DNA of 64,000 nucleotides, from IMG/VR virus record IMGVR_UViG_2877948078_000003. One strand, 5' to 3'. How positions within the stretch are numbered: the stretch's first letter is position 1; every line of letters starts with the position of its first letter. Below are positions 1-40,997 of this stretch, piece after piece. This DNA comes from a virus (Duplodnaviria > Heunggongvirae > Uroviricota > Caudoviricetes). The notes below the pieces were generated by a model. The model was not told the DNA's origin and made no database searches. It saw only the letters and a program-made list of their open reading frames with translations. The translations under genes and the position numbers were made by a program.

Positions 1-156
1 TTGTCATAGCGTTCGCCTTACTTTGAGATGAACCTTTGCTGCATAGGAGATCAGCCCGTCAAGGCTCACCAGCACTAACTGACTACTCAAAGGCTCATTC
101 CAAAGGGTTTGGTTCGACGTGGTTGAGTGCGCTGCGATGCGCGGTGAAATACCTGT

Positions 157-185
157 ACAAAAATGCCCCGCATCTGCGAGGCATT
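157..185 (-). terminator. Rho-independent terminator downstream of Rz (hairpin reads as a terminator on both strands)
   Basis: GC-rich hairpin TGCCCCGCATCTGCGAGGCA flanked by A run and T run, about 40 bp past the Rz stop on the minus strand. Confidence 0.5.
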
Positions 186-224
186 TTCCTGAAAGTCACG
201 TATTAAATTTCAGTGAAATTAAAA

Positions 225-677
225 TTATTTTAAGCACTGCGTCCTGATGTACTCCTGCAGGTAGTTGACCTGCGCGGTTATCTTGTCGATTCCACTTCTG
301 AGACGGTAATAATTGAGTTCAGCATCTGCTGTAAGTCCTGGGCTTTCTCCATCGCCCATGCTGCTGGCTCCGGTCGTTGACTTTGCACAGGTGGCGGCGA
401 CTTGCAGGCGCTTACGCCCAGCAGAAACATCAGCACGGAGACTTTCGATAGTCGCGTTAGCATCAGCAAGCTCCTTTGTGTATCTGGCGTCAAGTTCTGC
501 TACATCACGTTGACGCTTCTGCATGTCAGCGATGATGTACCTGGCTTTATCGCGCTGTTCTTTATAGGTAATGGCGTTATCACGGTAATGATTAACAGCC
601 CATGACAGGCAGACGATGATGCAAATAACCAGAGCGGAGATAATCGCGGCTACTCTTCTCACTGATCTATCCCCCAA
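225..677 (-). CDS. Rz: i-spanin Rz (inner-membrane spanin subunit)
   Basis: 150 aa with N-terminal TM segment then coiled-coil-like region; overlaps the endolysin stop; last gene of the lysis cassette; lambda Rz-like. Confidence 0.8.
278..463 (-). CDS. Rz1: o-spanin Rz1 lipoprotein, embedded in Rz in another frame
   Basis: Embedded ORF with lipobox-like LLGVSAC followed by proline-rich CKSPPPV...PAAWAMEK, resembling lambda Rz1; start codon uncertain (Met at 463 or 430). Confidence 0.55.
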
Positions 678-1192
678 CAGGCTAATGCGCTTTCCTGGTC
701 ACGACGAATAACCTGTCCGTAGCAGTTATTTGAACGTGTGCGGCAATCACGCCCACCGTCCTTAATCCACCAGCGAATCGACTCACAGGCACCTTTACGA
801 TCACCGGCATTAAGCCGCTTATAAAACGTCGACGGGAAACACTTACCCGGGCCAATGTTGTAAGGACAGAATGACGCAATACCCGCTTTCTGGGGTTCAG
901 TCAGTGGCACTTTGATGTTTTTCGCCACCCATGCCAGCGCCTTATCACGCTCAATGGCGTTAACCCGGTCGCATTTCCCCTTCGACAGCTTCATGCCAGG
1001 AATAACAGGCTTGCCATCCACCATGATGGCACCTCGGCAGATGGTCCAGATACCCGCACCATCACGGTATGCCGTGGTGTGGTTGCCTTCCTTTTCATCC
1101 AGAAACTGGTCGAGGATTTCAGGCGCAGAAGCACCTGCGGCAATCAGCGCCAGAACGGCAGCCGATAAACCATAGCGGAGTTTCCTGCTCAT
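659..1192 (-). CDS. R: SAR endolysin, phage lysozyme (GH24, R21/P1 Lyz type)
   Basis: 177 aa; N-terminal signal-anchor-release-like hydrophobic segment; catalytic E-x8-D-x5-T pattern in [24 protein letters not shown]; sits between holin and Rz. Confidence 0.85.
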
Positions 1193-1196
1193 CAGC

Positions 1197-1412
1197 TTAC
1201 TCTCCCCGTGCCGCCTTACGCCGGTCCTCTCTGATTTTGAAATACAGGTTCGTCAGGTACGTCAGCAGACCAAACAGCAGACTCCCCAGCACGCCTATTG
1301 CCGCCCACTGAGACGGGGAAACCCTGTCCAGCAACTGCAGGAACCAGTAGCCCGTTCCCACCGCTGACGTGGTGTATGACACACCTGTTGTGATTTTTTC
1401 CATCTGGTACAT
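1197..1412 (-). CDS. S: Pinholin / antiholin with dual start (phage 21 S21-like)
   Basis: 71 aa starting MYQMEK (Met1 and Met4 dual-start motif); two TM helices; C-terminus [20 protein letters not shown] as I recall for S21; RBS GGAG upstream. Confidence 0.85.
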
Positions 1413-1781
1413 ACCCCGTCTCCCGCAATCCGGAAGCTCACAACATGAAAAAGGCCGCCAGTGCTCCACTGACAGCCTCGTGTAGTTACTCTGAGTGCCC
1501 AACAATTCCCTGTCAAACGTGTTGACATTAAGAATCGCTTTTGTGTAGAAAAATTATGGCATGCATAACAATAAAACCTCACAGCCGTACTATTTCCACC
1601 AGAAGCATGACGCATTTCTCCCTGTGCTTACTGGTGGATTTTTTTTGCCCCGCAAATACCGCTGACACATATTGACAATAAGAATATTTTTCATTTAAAA
1701 ATATTCATGTACAAAAATGTTTCTCTGGAGTGTCCATAGAGCTCACCCGCCAGTCCATTCCGGTAACTGGCGGCTTTTTTA

Positions 1782-2244
1782 TCATGCCGCAGTGTCTGTG
1801 CTGTTCACTTCCACCGCAATGCTGTCAATCAGCAGCGTATACGTCGCCGATTTTGATATATCGGTCAGTTGCAGTTTGTCCACCGCCCCCGATGCCGGTG
1901 ACTTCACCAGTGTGAACGCCGCTCCCCGTTTCTCATCCAGTACTGGTGTCACCTGAATGCTGTTGTTTCCGGCAAACTCAAAAGCCAGCGTGTGCCATCC
2001 GTTATCAAAGACCCCGAATGTATCCAGCTTCGCATTCGGCTTCCTGTGATGCATCGCGTTCAGGTTCGTCGTATCCGTCTGCAGGAAGAAAGACATCAGC
2101 ATATCGTTACCTTCTCCTGACAGCGTCACCCCCTCCGGCAGGGACGACAACTGCCAGTAAATGCCCAGGGCAAACTGATTCGGCACCAGTGAACCCGGCA
2201 ACTTAAACCGTACGCTCACACGTCCGCCCTTCTTCAGTAACTCC
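1782..2244 (-). pseudogene. nanS-p: 3' (C-terminal) fragment of a nanS-p-type sialate O-acetylesterase gene, cut off by the Mu-like insertion
   Basis: Translation ELLKKGGRVSVRFKLPGSL...IDSIAVEV aligns to the C-terminal ~155 aa of the intact 680-aa paralogue at 36834-38876; homology stops exactly at the Mu-like left end. Confidence 0.8.
2240..2244. repeat. Left copy of the 5-bp target-site duplication ACTCC
   Basis: ACTCC directly outside the prophage left terminus; identical pentamer at 41125-41129; removing the element and one copy restores the nanS-p frame (GAELLKKGG). Confidence 0.6.
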
Positions 2245-2420
2245 TGTAACCAGGTGAATCATTTGATACCAACGAGGGTTTTAGTGAAAGGAGGTGAAAT
2301 CACCTGTAAGATACTGAAATAAAACAGGTGATGTCTGGATGAGCGCTTAAAGTCTATTTGATACCGATTGTGCAATAATTAATCGTTTATTCTAAAATCG
2401 GCAAAACTTTTGATACTGCG
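2245..2420 (+). repeat. Mu-like left end (attL) with repeated candidate transposase-binding motifs
   Basis: Begins 5'-TG; TTTGATACC at 2262-2270 and 2357-2365, TTTGATACT at 2408-2416; the reverse complement GGTATCAAA / AGTATCAAA recurs three times at the right end. Confidence 0.55.
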
Positions 2421-2494
2421 ATCTCAACTTTTTAAAGCGTTTAAAACTTCATTAAATCTATATGGCAACTAACATACGGGCCAGCCTCGCCAAA

Positions 2495-3025
2495 CTAACC
2501 CGCTTTAGATTCTACCGGATTTGATTGCCTACTTGTCTCGGTTTTTTCCAAAATCTCTCTGACGCAATCGTCTGGCATATCTACAATCATCAACGCAGCC
2601 AGGCGCTTCCTGCCTTCTAGTTGTAATAAATCCTGGTTTTCTTTATCCAGCAGTGTCAGAACCGTCTCTACACCTTTGCGAGCAAGGAGATTGGTTAACT
2701 GTTCTCGTTCGTCTTTCGTAAGGAATGAAAGCATCTGTGTAAGTTGATCTCCCTTATCACCAGAACGACCAAAATTACCACAAATACCAACATCGTTTGG
2801 TGATTCACCCTTGCCCTCTTTAAGCCACTCAAGACTAACTCCTTCACTTTCAGAAATTCGTATAAGGATACTTTCTCTGGGGGCTGGTTGTGTTTGTCCT
2901 CCCTTGAAATAGCTGTTTAATGTGTTGATATTGATTCCCCACGCTCTGGCAGCTGCACTTCTTGAAGGGTAGCGCTTTGTAAGCATTCCAATACGTTCAA
3001 TAACAGGTTCTTTTCCCTGCGACAT
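2495..3025 (-). CDS. c: Mu-type repressor (c / Repc-like)
   Basis: Leftward gene between attL and ner; N-terminal HTH-like region MSQGKEPVIERIGMLTKRYPSRSAAARAWGININTLNSYF; likely start at the internal Met (ORF extends to 3100). Confidence 0.7.
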   Translation of the reverse strand: MSQGKEPVIERIGMLTKRYPSRSAAARAWGININTLNSYFKGGQTQPAPRESILIRISESEGVSLEWLKEGKGESPNDVGICGNFGRSGDKGDQLTQMLSFLTKDEREQLTNLLARKGVETVLTLLDKENQDLLQLEGRKRLAALMIVDMPDDCVREILEKTETSRQSNPVESKAG

Positions 3026-3215
3026 AAAGATACCTCTTGGTGCTTTTCTAAGGAAAGGTTTCTTTCTATTTATCCAATTGAAAAATAAGGATAAAAGCAA
3101 AAAATAGCCAAAACACCAAAAATACCTTGATTTGGTATTTTTAGTGATGCATTATTTACCCGTGCAGATATCCGCACGAATATCCGCGCGGGTAACTTTT
3201 TAGAATAGAGGAAGT
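3026..3215. promoter_or_regulatory. Divergent repressor/early promoter and operator region (Mu O1-O3, Pe, Pc equivalent)
   Basis: AT-rich intergenic region between divergent repressor and ner genes; assigned by position only. Confidence 0.4.
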
Positions 3216-12493: not shown

Positions 12494-12919
12494 ATGGCAG
12501 AAACTCAGATGAGCATGTTTGGTGGTGACAGTGAGCAACTGCACGCCCTTATCGACCGCCTTGATGACATCCCTGATGATGTTCTCAAAAAGAACTGGCC
12601 GCGGACCCTGTCAGAACTGGTTGAAGTCACCGGCGCAGAACTTCAGCGTCAGGGGATTGAGCCGGTACTGGCCGGTAAACTGGCACGCAAGGTGGCTGCG
12701 GCTCAGGCAGCCTATATGGGCGGACGGGGTTATTACCTGCCGGTCGGGGAATCTCTCTTTGCCGAGCTGCGAAACAATGAGATATTTTCGCGCTGGGACC
12801 GGGGCGAGAAGATTGAATCCCTTCGCCGCCATTACCGGATGTCAGAAACCCAGATTTATACCGTCATACGTGAACAGCGCCGTCTGCATCTGGCAAGAAC
12901 GCAACCGCCACTTTTCTGA
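12494..12919 (+). CDS. mor: Mor/C-family transcriptional activator (middle/late operon regulator)
   Basis: 141 aa; C-terminal HTH (RRHYRMSETQIYTVIREQRR); position between gemA and the lysis genes. Confidence 0.75.
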   Translation: MAETQMSMFGGDSEQLHALIDRLDDIPDDVLKKNWPRTLSELVEVTGAELQRQGIEPVLAGKLARKVAAAQAAYMGGRGYYLPVGESLFAELRNNEIFSRWDRGEKIESLRRHYRMSETQIYTVIREQRRLHLARTQPPLF

Positions 12920-20717: not shown

Positions 20718-20892
20718 TTGTTTAAGGTATGCAAATGCATTACCTTACCCCCTTCAGGCGCGTGTCGTGATTTTCTAACCTGTATTTAACGGGCTTTAAA
20801 ATCTGCGTGAAGCGCCTTTGCATTTTTTCCTGAAAGCACTTCCTGAAATCCCGCAAAACCCGCCCTGAAAATTCCCGGCCTATGCTGCCGGA

Positions 20893-32589: not shown

Positions 32590-33671
32590 TGCCTTATCAG
32601 CCTTTACCGCTGGCACAGTTAATCACGCAGACACAGCAGGATATCAGCCAGCGTCTTCCCGGTTCGCAGCCGGGCGTGAATGAAACCACCCTGAATGCCA
32701 TTGCGTATGCTCAGGCAGGATTGTCTGCACAGGAGCATGAACATCTGGCCTGGATTGCACGTCAGATCATCCCGACAGAAGCCGATGAAGCCGAGTTGCT
32801 GAAGCACTGCGCTTTCTGGGGTGTCATGCGTAAACCCGCCTCACGGGGTGACGGGCCGGTTCAGCTGATGCTGACCACGGATGCGGGGATCACGGAAGGT
32901 GTGCTTCTCCAGCGCAGTGACGGCGTGGTTTACCGCATCACCTCCTCACTGACCGGTAAAGCCGGTACGCTGAATGTCAGTGTGGAGGCCGAAAGTGCCG
33001 GTCGTGCGGGAAATGCCCCGGCAGGGACGAAACTGACGTTTGTCACTCCGCAGGCGGGGATCAACCAGACGGCCACGGTGACCGGAACAGGGATCACCGG
33101 TGGTGCGGATGTGGAAACGGTGCCGGAGCTGCTTTCCCGTCTGGTTTTCCGGGTGCAGAATCCGCCGTCCGGCGGTACACAGTACGATTTTGAACGCTGG
33201 GCGCGTGAAGTGCCGGGGGTGACGCGGGCATGGTGCCGCCCGGAATGGCCGCAGGCGGGCTGCGTGGGGGTGACGTTCGTTCAGGACAACAACCCGGACA
33301 TTTTTCCCGGTGAAGGTGATGTGAAACGTGTGGCGGATTATATCCGCAGTCATGATGATCCGGCGACCGGTCAGCCTGTCGGTCAGCCGCTGGGGCCGAC
33401 GGTGACCGTGTTTAAACTGACCAATAAGCCAGTGCCCTTCAGTATCAGGATCATCCCGAAAACACCGGAGAATCAGGCGGCAGTAAAACAGGCACTGACC
33501 GACCTGTTATACAACGAATCCCGCCCCGGCGGTCTGGTTCTGGCGTCGTCTTTCTGGCGTGCCGTGGCGGGGGTGAAAAATCTGGAGGATTTTGAAGTGC
33601 GCAGCCCGCTGACGTCGGTTCAGGCGGGAGACAGCGAGCTGCTGACAGTGGGGGAAATCACATGGCTGTAA
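32589..33671 (+). CDS. Baseplate J-like protein (Mu gp47)
   Basis: 360 aa; order and size. Confidence 0.8.
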   Translation: MPYQPLPLAQLITQTQQDISQRLPGSQPGVNETTLNAIAYAQAGLSAQEHEHLAWIARQIIPTEADEAELLKHCAFWGVMRKPASRGDGPVQLMLTTDAGITEGVLLQRSDGVVYRITSSLTGKAGTLNVSVEAESAGRAGNAPAGTKLTFVTPQAGINQTATVTGTGITGGADVETVPELLSRLVFRVQNPPSGGTQYDFERWAREVPGVTRAWCRPEWPQAGCVGVTFVQDNNPDIFPGEGDVKRVADYIRSHDDPATGQPVGQPLGPTVTVFKLTNKPVPFSIRIIPKTPENQAAVKQALTDLLYNESRPGGLVLASSFWRAVAGVKNLEDFEVRSPLTSVQAGDSELLTVGEITWL

Positions 33672-34222
33672 CCCTCACTCCGCATCAGCGCGCCCTGTTG
33701 CAGTTGCTGCCTGACGGACTGGCCTGGGACAAGCGGCCGTCATCCGTACTGGCTGCGTTATGCCTTGGCCTCAGCCATTCCACCGAACGTGTTGCATGGA
33801 CGGGAAAACAACTGCTGGCAGAACGTTTCCCTGACAGTTCCCGTCTGCTTCTGGAAGACTGGGAGCGTTATCTCGGCCTTCCCGAGTGTGATATGGCCGG
33901 AGCCACCATCACAGAACGACAGCGTTATGCCGGGAATAAATACCGGATGAAACCTTCGCTGAACCGTGAATTTTATATCCGGTTTGCGGCAGAGTTTGGT
34001 TATGAAATAGATATTCAGCCATCACCGTATTCACAGTGGGTCAGTATTGTCACGATAAACAGTGAAACCGGCTACCGGAATATGAATGTGCTGGATGATA
34101 TTCTCACCCCGCTGCGTATTTATGAGGGCGGTGCGCTGGAATGTATTCTGAACCGTTATAAGCCTGCATGGCAGACGTTTATTTACGTGTATGCAAACAG
34201 TCACGAGGAGGAGAATATTTAA
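33662..34222 (+). CDS. Tail protein (Mu gp48-like)
   Basis: 186 aa; directly upstream of the tail fibre gene. Confidence 0.65.
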
Positions 34223-35082
34223 TGTTTCATGTTGATAATAATTCCGGCGTGGCGAATATGCCTGCGCTGGCACCGGCGCAGAGTAATACCACCGCCTGGT
34301 TTACCGAAGGTGACGGACAAAAAGGTATCAGCTGGATTGGTCAGGACTGGCTGAATATTCTCCAGGCCGAACTGCTGAATATTCTGGCTGAAGCCAGTAT
34401 TCAGCCGGATAAGGCGCAGTTAAACCAGCTTACGCTGTCTATTAAAGCCATTATCGCTGCGAATGCTTTTTCCCGGAAAAATAACCTGAAAGAAATTGCT
34501 GATGCCGGTGCGGATGCTCAGCGTCTGGCCCGTGGTTATCTTGGTCTGGGGACGCTTGCCACAAAAAACAGTCTTGGTCCCGGTGACGTTAATGCCCTGG
34601 CGAAGGTTCAGAATCTCGCCGACCTGGAGAATAAGGGAACCGCCCGTAATAATCTGGATGTTTACAGCAAGAGCGAAGGTGATAACCGTTACCTGCGCAG
34701 GGAGCAGCACGGCGCAGACATTCCGAATAAAGGGGCTTTTATCGATAACCTCGGTTTACGGGATACGGTAAACAGGGCTGCGAATGCCCTGCCATCAAAC
34801 GGTACGGCTGTTGCAGCAAGCAGGCTGGCAAATACCCGCAGAATCAATGGTGTCGCCTTTGACGGGACGCAGGATATAAACATCACATCCGGCATAACTC
34901 AGAGGGATGCTGATGCCCGATATGTTCAGAACGTAATGCTGGGTGCAAGTGCGCGGACAGAGACAACAGCACCAGCTGGATGTGTTGTAACATTTGTGGA
35001 TGGTGGCAGTAAAATGGAGTTTATAATGTATAAGCCTGTTCAAATATATATCGGGGGAGCATGGAGAACAATCTCTGGCTGA
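34222..35082 (+). CDS. S: Tail fibre protein S (constant part plus variable tip in the current orientation)
   Basis: 287 aa from ATG 34222; the gix crossover site lies inside the gene at 34739-34764; C-terminal [17 protein letters not shown] tip. Confidence 0.7.
34739..34764. promoter_or_regulatory. gix-L recombination site (Gin/Hin-type 12-2-12 crossover site)
   Basis: TTATCGATAACC-TC-GGTTTACGGGAT resembles the Mu gix / Hin hix consensus; inverted copy at 36094-36119. Confidence 0.65.
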
Positions 35083-35168
35083 TTTTTATTTATTCTGCGA
35101 AGCATCAGTAATACCCGCAGACAAAAAAATATATCATCGGCGGGGTTTATATAAAATACAGGTGAAAA

Positions 35169-35690
35169 ATGGAACTAATCAACGTTAAGCGATATAACCC
35201 GGAACACAAACCCTATGGTGAGAATGTTCAGTATTTCCAGAGTGAGGACGGAAGGGATTTTTATGAATCTATCCCGCTTTTCACAAAGAAATACAAACTC
35301 TGTATTTCGCCTGTAACGGGTATTATCTGCTCTGTTGCTGAAGATGTCTCTGCTTTATATCCGGCAGGTTTTACTGTTGTTGAAGTGGACGAACTGCCGG
35401 AAGGTGTGAATATTGACGGTAACTGGCAGTTTTCTGATGGCCTGATATCAAAGGTGCCGGTAAACTGGAAGACGGTTGCTGAAAATCGCCGCTCATCGCT
35501 GCTCCAGGAGGCCAACGGAACCGTGGATGACTGGAAAACAGAATTAAAACTGGACATGATTAGCGATGAAAATAAATTAAAGCTGACGCGCTGGATGGCG
35601 TATATCCGACAGCTTAAAGAAATGCACTTTAATGATATTGCCAGTGAGGGGCATTACCAGGCGATTCCCTGGCCGGAAAAACCGGAATAA
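35169..35690 (+). CDS. U: Tail fibre assembly protein (U / Tfa-like)
   Basis: 173 aa immediately after S; Tfa-like N-terminus. Confidence 0.7.
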   Translation: MELINVKRYNPEHKPYGENVQYFQSEDGRDFYESIPLFTKKYKLCISPVTGIICSVAEDVSALYPAGFTVVEVDELPEGVNIDGNWQFSDGLISKVPVNWKTVAENRRSSLLQEANGTVDDWKTELKLDMISDENKLKLTRWMAYIRQLKEMHFNDIASEGHYQAIPWPEKPE

Positions 35691-35724
35691 TTCAGAGGGT
35701 GCATTCAGCACCCTTTTCTGTGGT

Positions 35725-36105
35725 TTACACTGAACTCACCGTTCTCCAGGCATTATTAATATAAATCTGAACCGGGCGATAATAGACCCCACCGATATTA
35801 TCCGCAGACCGGGAGCCGGTATCCTGTACATGAATACCGGAAAGCATACAACCTGCTGGTGTTTTATAATCCCAGGTGACTTCATTACCCGCAGGAGAGT
35901 GGCGGCTCTGAGCACCAAGTTGCACATTACGAACATATCTGCCGTCTGCTGTAGCCTGGGTCATACCGGATGTAATAGTGATGTCTTTTGTGCCATCGAA
36001 CGCAACACCATTAATTTTACGTGCCGCAGACAGCTTGTTTGCCGCTACGGCTGTACCATTCGATGGCAGGGCATTTGCAGCCCTGTTTACCGTTTCCCGT
36101 AAACC
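35725..36105 (-). CDS. Alternative tail-fibre C-terminal segment S' (expressed only after inversion; no own start codon)
   Basis: Minus-strand frame open from gix-R down to the stop at 35725; after inversion it fuses in frame to the S constant part; ends YRPVQIYINNAWRTVSSV, paralogous to the S tip. Confidence 0.55.
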   Translation of the reverse strand, partial: GLRETVNRAANALPSNGTAVAANKLSAARKINGVAFDGTKDITITSGMTQATADGRYVRNVQLGAQSRHSPAGNEVTWDYKTPAGCMLSGIHVQDTGSRSADNIGGVYYRPVQIYINNAWRTVSSV

Positions 36106-36119
36106 GAGGTTTCAGGGAT
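36094..36119. promoter_or_regulatory. gix-R recombination site
   Basis: TTCCCGTAAACC-GA-GGTTTCAGGGAT, inverted relative to gix-L. Confidence 0.65.
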
Positions 36120-36173
36120 GCCGTATATCTGCTTTAAAAGGCCTTTCCACCTCTTTTTAAGGAAGGTAAATAC

Positions 36174-36734
36174 ATGCTGATTGGCTATATACGCGTATCA
36201 ACAAATGACCAGAACACAGGTTTACAAAGAAATGCGCTGGAATGTGCAGGATGTGAGCAGATTTTTGAAGATAAAATGAGCGGAAACACAACGCAGCGAC
36301 CGGGACTGAAGCGGGCACTGAAGAAACTAAAACCCGGTGACACACTGATGGTCTGGAAACTGGACAGGCTGGGGCGCAGTATGCGCCACCTTGTTGCGCT
36401 GACAGATGAATTACAGCAACAGGGGATAAATTTTCGTAGTCTTACTGACAACATTGATACGTCAACCCCCATGGGGCGCTTCTTTTTTCACATAATGGGT
36501 GCGCTGGCAGAAATGGAGCGTGAATTAATTGTCGAACGGACACGGGCTGGTCTTGCAGCTGCCCGTGAAAGGGGACGAACCGGCGGCAGACCCCGCCGTC
36601 TCACGCAGGAACAATACGAGCAGGTTGGGCGTTTACTGGCCGGGGGTGTCAGTCGAAGACAGGTGGCACTTATTTTTGATATCGGCCTTTCAACCCTTTA
36701 TCGTTATTATCCTGCGAGCGTTTCGGAAAAATAA
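36174..36734 (+). CDS. gin: Serine DNA invertase (Gin/Hin/Pin family)
   Basis: 186 aa; N-terminal MLIGYIRVSTNDQ catalytic-serine motif; C-terminal HTH; adjacent to gix-R. Confidence 0.9.
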   Translation: MLIGYIRVSTNDQNTGLQRNALECAGCEQIFEDKMSGNTTQRPGLKRALKKLKPGDTLMVWKLDRLGRSMRHLVALTDELQQQGINFRSLTDNIDTSTPMGRFFFHIMGALAEMERELIVERTRAGLAAARERGRTGGRPRRLTQEQYEQVGRLLAGGVSRRQVALIFDIGLSTLYRYYPASVSEK

Positions 36735-36833: not shown

Positions 36834-38876
36834 ATGACGTCCAAATGGGTTCAACTATCATCAATGCCCGGAAACTTTACCGTTAAAGTTTCCGGTGGTA
36901 CAGCGGCATTTCTTGAGGCTCCCTTTCCTCCGGCTGAAGCGAAAGGAGGAATGACATTTGCTGACTGTCTCATCAGTTTTAATACACGGGATTGCCTGTG
37001 GGTAAGACCAGTATCCGGTGATCCGAGTGTGGAAATTACCGGAGCGGGTATTGGTGCGGTCATTCCGTTAAGTGCTGATGTTGCCGGTACTGCTGAACCG
37101 TCAGACTGGGATAATGCTGAAACACATACCCGTCCGTCAGGAAATGAAACGGCTTCCAGCTCCCCTTCCTGGTATTACGTGGTGGTTCTTGCTGGTCAGT
37201 CAAACGGTATGGCTTACGGTGAAGGTCTGCCACTGCCGGAGACATATGACCGCCCCGAACCGCGTATTATGCAGTTAGCCCGTCGCAGTACAGTCACGCC
37301 GGGAGGTAAAGCCTGTCAGTATAACGACATCATTCTGGCCGACCACTGTCTGCATGATGTGCAGGATATGAGTGGAAAAAATCACCCGAAAGCGGATGTG
37401 GCTAAAGGGCAATATGGCACCGTGAGTCAGGGGCTTCACATTGCCAAAAAACTGCTGCCGTTTATTCCGGCAGATGCGGGGATTCTGCTGGTTCCCTGCT
37501 GTCGTGGCGGTTCTGCATTCACGGCGGGTGCTGACGGCACGTACAGTGACAGCACGGGTGCTTCAGAGGACTCAGCCCGCTGGGGTGTGGATAAGCCGCT
37601 GTATAAGGACTTAATCAGCCGGACAAAAGCGGCACTGGCGAAGAACCCGAAAAACCGCCTGCTTGCTGTGGTGTGGATGCAGGGCGAGTTTGATATTGAT
37701 GCGAAGCCGACGGAGCATTCTGCGCTGTTTCTGGCGATGGTGGAAAAATTCCGCACAGACCTGGCTGAAAAAGCGGAGCAGTGTATTGGTGGCCGGACTG
37801 AAACTGTGCCGTGGATTTGTGGCGATACCACGTATTTCTGGAAAAAGAAAAATGAACCGGCATATCAGGCAATCTATGGCGGCTACAAAAACAAAACAGA
37901 TAAAAACATTCATTTCGTCCCATTAATGACAGATGAAAATGGCGCGAATGTACCCACCAACAATCCGACAGAAGACCCGGATATTGAATCCATTGGTTAT
38001 TACGGCTCAACGTGGCGTAACAGTGCTGCCACCTGGACATCTGCGGACCGGGCCAGCCATTTCAGTGCCTGGGCGCGCCGGGGAATTATTTCCGACCGTC
38101 TGGCCACGGCTGTTCTGACTCACGCAGGGCGAACCACAGTAAAAGCCGATGTTCCATCTTCTGAAACTGATGCGCCAACGCCGTCACCTTCAGAAGCTGA
38201 AACAGTAACCACAACAACACTGCTGTCTTACCGTGCCAGTGAGTCTGAAGGGAAGCTGACCGAACAGGGCTGGAGTGCAGGTGGAGGTAAAGCGGAAATT
38301 GTTGCCGATGAAGGTGCAACAGGTGGTACCGCGATGAAGCTGAGCAAGGAGACAGGAGTGGGGTCATGGTATCTGGAGCATGATGCCGGCACTGGCGCTG
38401 AACTGCTGAAAAATGGCGGTTTAATCAGCTGCCGCTTTAAGGCATCCGGTGAACTGGTAGCAAATCAGTATGTCATTGCTCTTTACTGGCCGGTTTCCTC
38501 TCTGCCGCAGGGTGTCACCCTGACAGGGGATGCAGGGAATAATCTGCTGGCAGCGTTTTACATCCAGACAGATGCAAAAGACCTGAATGTGATGTACCAC
38601 AATGCGAAGGTGGCGACAAACAACCTGAAACTGGGAAGCTTTGGCGCATTTGATAACGAATGGCATACGCTGGCCTTCCGCTTTGCCGGGAATAACAGCC
38701 TTCAGGTGACGCCGGTTATTGATGGTCAGGATGGCACACCGTTCACGCTGACGCAGTCACCGGTCAGTGCCTTTGCGACGGATAAACTGCATGTGACAGA
38801 CATTACCAAAAATGCGACTTACCCCGTGCTGATTGACAGCATTGTGGTGGAAGTGAAAAAAGCGGTAACAGAATAA
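36834..38876 (+). CDS. nanS-p: NanS-p-type sialate O-acetylesterase (SGNH/DUF303 esterase with C-terminal lectin-like domain), cargo inside the Mu-like prophage
   Basis: 680 aa; central block VVVLAGQSNGMAYGEG ... VVWMQGEFD typical of the NanS family; ~75-85% identical over most of its length to the split host-prophage copy but with a different N-terminal ~130 aa. Confidence 0.8.
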   Translation: MTSKWVQLSSMPGNFTVKVSGGTAAFLEAPFPPAEAKGGMTFADCLISFNTRDCLWVRPVSGDPSVEITGAGIGAVIPLSADVAGTAEPSDWDNAETHTRPSGNETASSSPSWYYVVVLAGQSNGMAYGEGLPLPETYDRPEPRIMQLARRSTVTPGGKACQYNDIILADHCLHDVQDMSGKNHPKADVAKGQYGTVSQGLHIAKKLLPFIPADAGILLVPCCRGGSAFTAGADGTYSDSTGASEDSARWGVDKPLYKDLISRTKAALAKNPKNRLLAVVWMQGEFDIDAKPTEHSALFLAMVEKFRTDLAEKAEQCIGGRTETVPWICGDTTYFWKKKNEPAYQAIYGGYKNKTDKNIHFVPLMTDENGANVPTNNPTEDPDIESIGYYGSTWRNSAATWTSADRASHFSAWARRGIISDRLATAVLTHAGRTTVKADVPSSETDAPTPSPSEAETVTTTTLLSYRASESEGKLTEQGWSAGGGKAEIVADEGATGGTAMKLSKETGVGSWYLEHDAGTGAELLKNGGLISCRFKASGELVANQYVIALYWPVSSLPQGVTLTGDAGNNLLAAFYIQTDAKDLNVMYHNAKVATNNLKLGSFGAFDNEWHTLAFRFAGNNSLQVTPVIDGQDGTPFTLTQSPVSAFATDKLHVTDITKNATYPVLIDSIVVEVKKAVTE

Positions 38877-39989: not shown

Positions 39990-40100
39990 ATTGTTGATGA
40001 CTTTTCAATCTATTTGTTGTATCAATTAAACAAATCGAATCGATCGTTTTTGTCGATCGATTGCATGAGAAAGGCATCAACAACAAAGCAGGAGGTTATG
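39990..40100 (+). promoter_or_regulatory. Putative com-mom promoter region with clustered GATC (Dam) sites
   Basis: AT-rich region with GATC-containing repeats (AATCGATCG, GTCGATCGATT) just upstream of com, as in Mu where Dam methylation and C control Pmom. Confidence 0.4.
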
Positions 40101-40105
40101 CGGCC

Positions 40106-40306
40106 ATGTATCGAAACATACGGTGCCGACACTGCAATAAGCTACTGGCACGGGCCAGTTTCAGTTATCTGGAAGTAAAATGTCCGCGCTGTAAAACCCT
40201 CAATCAAATCACATCTCCGAGCGCCACAGAGCACCCCACATACACAAGGAAATCCTGTCGTGGGGAACAGAAAGCAAGTCACATCCCGAATCATCAGCAC
40301 GCCTGA
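40106..40306 (+). CDS. com: Com-like zinc-finger translational activator of mom
   Basis: [31 protein letters not shown] (CxxC ... CxxC) resembles Mu Com; RBS AGGAGG upstream; overlaps the mom start. Confidence 0.7.
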
Positions 40307-40997
40307 ACTTATTCGCTATAACGACAATATCGTTGGTTATGGCTCCCGTGAGTTGCGGGTTGAGACAATAAGTTGCTGGCTGGCCAGACTGGTCATCGTC
40401 AATAAACATTACAGCCACCGTTTCGTAAATAACTCCTACCTTCATCTGGGCATATTTTCAGAACGGGAACTTGTTGGCGTAATGCAATGGGGTTACGCCC
40501 TTAACCCAAACAGTGGTGCACACGTCGTAACGGGTACGCAGAACCGAGAATATATGGAGCTTAACCGGCTATGGCTGCATGACTGTATGCCGAGAAACTC
40601 CGAATCAAGGGCAATCAGTTACGCGCTCAAGCTAATCAGACAGCTTTATCCGCAGGTACAGTGGGTTCAGTCGTTTGCAGATGAGCGTTGTGGCTGTCTT
40701 GGTGTCGTGTATCAGGCAAGCAATTTTGATTATGTAGGCAGCCATGAATCAACATTCTATGAACTTGATGGCGAGTGGTATCACGAGATTTGCAGGAATG
40801 CCATTAAACGAGGCGGACAACGAGGTGAACATCTGAGGGCTAATATCGACAGAGCCAGTGTTCATAAGTTCCGACAGTTTCGTTACATCCGGTTTCTGAA
40901 CAAGAGGGCCAGAAAACGCCTCAACACAAAGCTATTCAAAGTCCAGCCTTACCCAAAACCACAAACTGTTAAAACCGGTTTGAAAGAGATTGGGTGA
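40260..40997 (+). CDS. mom: Mom-like DNA modification protein (anti-restriction adenine modification)
   Basis: 245 aa starting at GTG inside the com 3' end as in Mu; last gene before the right end. Confidence 0.7.

Follow-up and report, generated by a model that had tools for sequence, protein, structure and literature searches.

How can an invertible tail-fibre switch serve two alternative fibre tips with a single gene for an assembly chaperone? The question is raised by a locus in the Caudoviricetes sequence IMGVR_UViG_2877948078_000003 of IMG/VR, of which we analysed a stretch of 64,000 nucleotides (nt), hereafter the window. The locus forms the host-range switch of a Mu-like prophage of the Sp18 type, which is frequent in Shiga-toxin E. 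coli (STEC), and its membership of the Gin-type serine invertase systems with an invertible tail-fibre switch is confirmed by sequence comparison. Downstream of Sc, the constant N-terminal part of the fibre protein S, two gix sites enclose a tip, Sv, the chaperone gene, U, and a second, silent tip, Sv', on the opposite strand; inversion exchanges the tips and leaves U antisense to the fibre gene. An earlier note on this DNA recognized the single chaperone and its antisense position in the inverted state, and considered that the alternative fibre needs no chaperone, borrows another or is non-functional. Those observations stand, and comparison with related loci favours a possibility that the note omitted: that one shared chaperone, U, serves both tips irrespective of orientation, a reading to which we assign a probability of roughly 0.55. 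It builds on direct observations, namely the anatomy of the segment, the in-frame fusion, the occurrence of both orientations, the homology of tips and chaperones and the existence of fixed convergent relatives; its weakest part is the transcription of U in the flipped state.

Anatomy and inversion of the segment

The recombination sites are defined by a 17-mer, AACCTCGGTTTACGGGA, that occurs exactly twice in the window, once on each strand; shuffled controls gave a mean of 0.02 matches and none contained two. The left site, gixL, reads TTATCGATAACC-TC-GGTTTACGGGAT and the right site, gixR, reads ATCCCTGAAACC-TC-GGTTTACGGGAA in reverse complement, with an identical TC crossover dinucleotide in both, and they match Mu gix, TTATCCAAAACC-TC-GGTTTACAGGAA, at 22 and 20 of 26 positions, respectively (counted by hand). 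These features bear out the gix-like sites proposed in the earlier note at the positions listed in Table 1. Between the sites lies a 1357-bp segment that holds Sv, U, a hairpin and the silent, convergent Sv', and an intact gin follows; the earlier note had likewise described a 1.35-kb segment with a serine invertase gene after it. A longer inverted repeat, with arms of 200 nt (34747-34946 and 35912-36111) that are 73% complementary and separated by 965 nt, corresponds to the homologous first ~60 codons of the two tips.

When 34751-36107 is inverted in silico, Sc is joined in frame to Sv' to give a 303-amino-acid (aa) fibre, in agreement with the fusion to a minus-strand tip that had been predicted, and the annotations of PA20, 89-3156 and Sakai contain the same Sc-Sv' protein. 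In the window orientation Sv' has no start of its own, since a stop codon inside the outer half of gixR closes its frame; a hidden start for the silent tip was considered and rejected on the same ground.

Gin contains the Resolvase (PF00239, 4.2e-51) and HTH_7 (PF02796, 1.7e-14) domains, can be aligned over residues 1-182 with 3uj3, a structure of Mu Gin (E = 1.6e-91), is ~80% identical to Mu Gin in an alignment inspected by eye, and keeps the RVSTNDQ motif with the catalytic Ser9. Systems of this kind have a Fis-dependent recombinational enhancer, sis, in cis, which Mu carries within the 5' portion of its gin gene; over its 5' 389 nt the window gene shows 75% DNA identity to Mu gin, with one highly conserved block. 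We propose that recombination by Gin takes place at the TC core common to both gix sites and thereby inverts 34751-36107.

The switch is not confined to a single orientation, and both are found among nearly identical phages. Two related loci, L006 and L007, are ~99% identical apart from an exactly gix-bounded 1385 nt that is inverted, and the window differs from L005 (strain 89-3156), to which it is ~98% identical, by inversion of 35169-36111. Prophage Sp18 of strain Sakai is in the flipped state with its chaperone gene antisense to the fibre gene, and in LC727895, a Mu-like phage transposed into an Stx1a (Shiga toxin) phage, the segment is inverted relative to the window, so that Sc-Sv' forms an intact 321-aa open reading frame (ORF) with U antisense; the position expected of U after inversion is therefore one that exists in nature. 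Sc-Sv' is the expressed fibre in L001, L004, L005 and Sakai (ECs_4989). Among 5426 complete E. coli genomes, ~200 of which carry the switch, searches specific for the junctions placed 27 in the window state (Sv' adjoining gin) and 184 in the flipped state (Sc fused to Sv', U antisense), counts that show occurrence and not switching rates. A long-read-confirmed inversion in CP066032 was examined as an example of the one-chaperone design and rejected, as it proved to be a classical two-chaperone Mu-type locus.

The sites and the invertase vary among relatives. In many O157-type copies (L004, L006-L010, L012 and the type-B loci) the gix site proximal to Sc reads ...ATAACG-TC-GG..., with a C-to-G change beside the crossover, and gixR is canonical; the sites of the window are canonical, unlike these. 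A similar change may slow or abolish inversion, according to work on SfMu (PMC4406740). A metagenomic copy, L009, carries TT as the core of both sites, a coordinated change, and in the near-identical prophage of strain 89-3156 a frameshift in gin (L005 21846-22405) locks the segment in the flipped orientation, a control supplied by nature.

Such changes could be read as signs that the flipped state is off or defective, Sc-Sv' failing to assemble without a co-transcribed U and yielding fibreless particles, in which case the segment would not select the host range but turn infectivity on and off, or would be what is left of a decaying G segment with two chaperones. We regard this as improbable. 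The gixL change in many O157-type loci, if it impairs inversion as the similar SfMu change may, and the locking of L005 in the flipped state are compatible with it, as is the fact that only the window orientation places fibre and U in one transcription unit. Against it, Sv' is intact and highly conserved in every locus examined (99-100% or 82% identical in type-A loci) and is a normal member of its tip family, the flipped state is the commoner one and includes a Mu-like phage recently transposed into Stx phages, and the DNA between U and Sv' consists of a 34-nt hairpin alone, with no remnant of a second chaperone gene, U'.

One chaperone gene and two related tips

Sc matches residues 1-192 of Mu S (5yvq_A, E = 4.5e-47) and the tail fibre family phrog_1833 (2.9e-129), and the most likely start, judged from the MFHVDNN sequence shared with Mu S, is 34222 rather than 34168; the central shaft of Mu is missing from the window fibre. 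Sv and Sv' are 56% identical overall, near-identical over approximately the first 60 residues and divergent beyond; the earlier note gave ~50 near-identical and ~70 divergent residues. They have in common the C-terminal motif Y(K/R)PVQIYI..AWRT, as well as a Y(K/R)PxQ...W(R/K)T C-terminus and invariant positions G, Y, Q and W. Sv' itself matches phrog_1833 (5.5e-54). A profile built from 12 tips matched the tip of Mu S (5yvq_A, residues 424-503, E = 2e-9) and, as the best structural relative, the 'short tail fiber' structure 9cuy (E = 1.9e-15). The PDB entry 5yvq holds Mu S (chain A) together with U (chain B); an assignment of 9cuy to the phage Sf14 fibre was ruled out, as that structure is not from Sf14. 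By these comparisons Sv and Sv' are paralogous Mu-S-type tips of one family.

The allele of Sv in the window is rare. Neither this allele nor its spacer (together within 34900-35170) occurs in any of the 5426 complete E. coli genomes, the exact window fibre protein is recorded on one chromosome only (CP031892.1), and the nearest tip, in the non-invertible phage L036, is 77% identical to it over 107 nt of nucleotide sequence. Swaps have affected the U-adjacent tip far more often than either U or Sv'.

U is the only Caudo_TAP gene of the locus (PF02413, 8.9e-18, 65.1 bits against a cut-off of 22.1), and it matches Mu U (5yvq_B, E = 4.9e-16) and phrog_136 (2.6e-58). Neither the Caudo_TAP search nor tblastn with U and with a Mu-type U' revealed a second chaperone gene in the 64-kb window, so that no U' ORF had been overlooked in the earlier account; the stop codons of U and Sv' are only 34 nt apart, and this interval forms the hairpin. 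In relatives, too, the PGAP annotation from NCBI shows only one tail fibre assembly protein. The locus thus has one Caudo_TAP gene where Mu G and P1 C segments have the U and U' pair, and it also departs from these segments in lacking a chaperone gene immediately 3' of the fibre gene, since 86 nt separate Sv from U. This spacing is a general property of the design: 51-121 nt precede U in all single-chaperone invertible loci, whereas the corresponding interval measures 0-17 nt where the locus is non-invertible and 2 nt in Mu. The long spacer fits an uncoupling of U from the translation and transcription of the fibre.

Which chaperone accompanies which tip was examined in 80 IMG/VR loci with relatives of U, which we classified into four patterns; a scan of species-representative genomes with U gave no confirmed relative. 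Single-chaperone invertible loci contain two types of U, ~61% identical to each other, and occur in both orientations with several alleles of the U-adjacent tip. In the non-invertible relatives the fibre ends in a tip of the same family and a U-family gene follows within the short interval given above. Among these, L036 carries an Sv-like tip and L038, L040 and L041 carry Sv'-like tips (...SGI.VQ.TG...ADNIGGVYYK..QIYING.WRTVSG), and the U proteins of the latter three are 94-95% identical to that of L036, with 90-95% identity among all four. Essentially one chaperone type, on this evidence, occurs behind either tip class. The two-chaperone loci L065, L075 and L081 offer the complementary case, in that a tip of this family is followed by a U-family gene, and opposite to this stands a Mu-U-type gene only ~26% identical to U; in L075, for which the ORFs were listed, the latter stands behind a long Mu-S-type tip. 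This pairing implies that the two chaperones accompany two unrelated tip types.

The conservation of U points in the same direction. Residues 1-90, which correspond to the fibre-binding domain of TfaMu as outlined in PMC9608196, have a mean column conservation of 0.80 across all tip classes, as compared with 0.62 for residues 91-173. Taken together, the single tip family, the near-identical U behind either kind of tip and the conserved fibre-binding half suggest that U would act as a generic chaperone of short Mu-S-like tips, serving both Sv and Sv', and a chaperone of this kind would make a second one unnecessary.

An alternative is that the Sv' fibre is made without the resident U when the segment is flipped, either by folding chaperone-free or with a tail-fibre assembly protein (Tfa) supplied in trans by another prophage, so that U would partner no tip but the one next to it. 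Mu-like fibres without any chaperone have been reported, as in phage Sf14 (PMC11821841); STEC genomes are rich in lambdoid prophages, one of which houses the window phage; and U is linked to an adjacent tip that is often swapped, while U and Sv' are conserved. We nevertheless consider this alternative unlikely, if somewhat less so than a defective flipped state. The Sv'-like tips of non-invertible relatives always directly precede a U-family gene, no other Tfa gene is present in the 64-kb window, and a phage that needed a foreign prophage for infectivity would spread poorly to new hosts.

A further possibility concerns the chaperone that accompanies the fibre. North and Davidson reportedly found in 2021 that Mu Tfa proteins remain on the fibre and help host binding; if so, the two orientations might yield a U-decorated fibre and a U-free or U-poor one. 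The segment would then toggle chaperone dosage along with tip identity, which at the extreme would switch infectivity on and off, a design that is not known to have been described for Gin-type systems. We think this doubtful.

Expression of U in either orientation

A chaperone that serves both tips has to be produced in either orientation of the segment. The late operon is expected to read Sc-Sv and then U in the window state; in the flipped state it would read Sc-Sv' (303 aa) and end at the central hairpin. On the U strand a terminator scan picks out the hairpin as an intrinsic terminator, and the other strand folds too, with folding z-scores of -3.05 on the plus strand and -3.23 on the minus strand; the spacer between Sv and U has no significant RNA structure (z = -0.87). 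Under a shared chaperone, U would be made in either orientation by transcription independent of the fibre gene, supplemented in the window state by read-through from S. Independent transcription may start in the long spacer or the tip upstream of U, or on the gin side of gixR.

Relatives that have lost the switch altogether are informative here. In L014, L015, L018-L021, L031 and E. coli CI5 (L087), a short unique sequence has taken the place of gin and the second tip, and fibre gene and U are fixed in convergent orientation; seven complete E. coli genomes, CI5 among them, match a query for this gin-less junction at a coverage of at least 80%. The five members that were aligned share one common deletion junction and a U-upstream region of ~320 nt that is 98% identical and contains a promoter-like ATGATA-17-TATAAT element, a 10/12 match to sigma-70 in the L014 type. 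In L014 (3851-4000) and L087, 40 nt of the gin 3' end are followed by ~50 nt of novel sequence with a perfect TATAAT, and downstream of these come an L003-type spacer and U.

The U genes of this lineage have diverged at synonymous sites (dS) by 0.11-0.43, with ratios of nonsynonymous to synonymous divergence (dN/dS) of 0.10-0.23, and the members carry different tips. By this measure U is under purifying selection, and a selected U that is permanently convergent with the only fibre gene argues that the convergent arrangement can work. Gin-less relatives in which the only fibre has an Sv'-type tip and an intact, selected U is kept weigh against an Sv' fibre that dispenses with the resident chaperone. 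The lineage also tells against a defective flipped state, since its members are permanently arranged in this way, yet have spread and recombined across strains; this fixed lineage and the excess of the flipped state (184 versus 27) weaken the suggestion of the earlier note that the alternative fibre might be non-functional.

Several points weigh against a shared, orientation-independent U. When the segment is flipped, U runs antisense to the late operon, and the search for a promoter revealed no convincing one: simple sigma-70 scans that covered the window, L003, L004 and L016 gave none upstream of U above shuffle background, the spacers of different alleles are not homologous, and the promoter-like element of the gin-less relatives lies in sequence that is missing from the invertible loci. 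Alleles of U recombine, the junction being 98% identical while dS in U reaches 0.43, and the purifying selection therefore need not all stem from the fixed convergent context. The pairing of chaperone and tip is deduced from gene neighbourhood, the 27:184 count is inflated by clonal O157 sampling, and the orientation of a prophage is not under direct selection.

With respect to the missing promoter, the late promoters of Mu depend on the activator C and are invisible to sigma-70 scans, so that a null scan is absence of evidence and not evidence of absence. The window encodes a C homologue (12494-12919), and a perfect dyad, TAAGGTATGCAAATGCATTACCTTA, followed by CCCCC (20723-20752) in a 175-nt gap upstream of the protease/scaffold gene may be a binding site of this late activator. 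As a motif explaining the expression of U the dyad was abandoned, being unique in the window and absent near U.

A chaperone shared in this way would be of interest beyond the locus. Two tips and many swapped alleles that share one Tfa constitute a natural experiment on chaperone specificity and, if the proposal is true, fibres engineered from this family could be retargeted by swapping a tip of ~60-70 residues without a matching chaperone. The locus also poses the regulatory question of how a gene inside an invertible segment is expressed in both orientations, for which the gin-less relatives are a ready control. Sp18-type Mu-like prophages are frequent in STEC and transpose into other prophages, including Stx phages, which makes their host range relevant to the movement of genes between pathogens.

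Setting of the switch and known systems

The Mu-like prophage extends over ~2400-41125 of the window, with the switch in its tail module (Table 1), and its right end matches the point at which the Mu-like insertion in LC727895 stops. It is nested in a lambdoid prophage of Shiga-toxin E. coli, whose flank encodes a Q antiterminator and a DNA methyltransferase; the annotation of LC727895 and LC727881 places relatives of the Mu-like phage inside Stx1a and Stx2c phages. Homologues of Mu gp47 and gp48 precede the fibre gene, that of gp48 occupying 33662-34222, and the segment has 94-99% DNA identity to the Mu-like prophage of many STEC genomes.

Table 1. Coordinates of the switch features in the window
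Feature	Position	Strand	Remarks
Sc, constant N-terminal fibre part	34222..34750	+	outside invertible segment; alternative upstream ATG 34168
gixL	34739..34764	.	central TC = 34751-34752
Sv, tip expressed in window orientation	34751..35082	+	in frame with Sc
AT-rich spacer, 86 nt, Sv stop to U start	35083..35168	+	
U, tail-fibre assembly chaperone (Tfa)	35169..35690	+	PF02413 Caudo_TAP
GC-rich hairpin between convergent U and Sv'	35694..35716	.	
Sv', silent alternative fibre tip	35725..36107	-	
gixR	36094..36119	.	central GA = 36106-36107
gin, serine DNA invertase	36174..36734	+	outside segment

On the right of gin, 36834-38876 encodes a protein of 680 aa that combines a SASA carbohydrate-esterase domain with DUF6645 at its C-terminus (phrog_143, function unknown). 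The gene stands 3' of gin, between gin and com, in every Sp18-type locus and adjoins U divergently in the gin-less relatives; its product could be an esterase that modifies the virion or the host surface. At the right end of the prophage (39990-40997), the annotation of the near-identical L005 indicates that a Com-like regulator precedes a DNA cytosine methyltransferase, in place of the com-mom pair of Mu. A tRNA-like feature annotated in a relative was not found in the window.

Among known elements the nearest is Sp18 of O157:H7 Sakai, which is of the same type, with ~94-99% DNA identity, the same single chaperone and the same order of gp47, gp48, S, U, silent tip, invertase and DUF6645 protein. 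Its fibre, chaperone (on the opposite strand), silent tip and invertase genes are ECs_4989, ECs_4990, ECs_4991 and ECs_4992, respectively. The window differs from it in orientation and in its rare U-adjacent tip allele, and from many O157 copies in having a canonical gixL in place of ATAACG. That Sp18 has an invertible host-specificity region with genes unlike those of Mu was already noted in 2009 (PMC2669165), and one Sp18 function is scored as atypical in a table of Asadulghani et al.; the literature that we searched contained no discussion of the single chaperone of Sp18-type phages or of its expression.

The Mu G segment shares with the window homologous Gin, Sc, tip and U, the TC core of gix, a gin gene that lies outside the segment on its right, and a central hairpin between convergent genes, which are U and U' in Mu and U and Sv' here. 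The window segment is shorter, at 1.36 kb as against ~3 kb in Mu, as is its fibre (~290-300 versus 504 aa), and one chaperone replaces the two of the Mu arrangement of S, U, U' and S'. Its alternative tips are paralogous, with the 56% identity noted above, whereas Mu has two different tip types, and, unlike in Mu, one orientation leaves the chaperone gene antisense to the fibre gene. The P1 C segment with Cin and the e14 P segment with Pin are classical two-chaperone relatives. The two-chaperone loci L075, L065 and L081, in which the same U family is used, have a serine invertase, a constant fibre part and a U-family gene behind a class-3 tip, and differ in that the second tip is long, of Mu-S type and provided with its own chaperone, where the window has related tips and one chaperone.

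The gin-less Sp18-like prophages share with the window the fibre, the U family, the hairpin and the DUF6645 neighbour, in an arrangement that equals its flipped state; they differ from it by deletion of the invertase and the second tip and by the 98%-conserved region of 320 nt upstream of U, with its promoter-like, TATAAT-containing site. The locus itself has long been sequenced and its invertibility is known; its convergent layout with one chaperone, a variant of the Mu and P1 scheme, has been little described.

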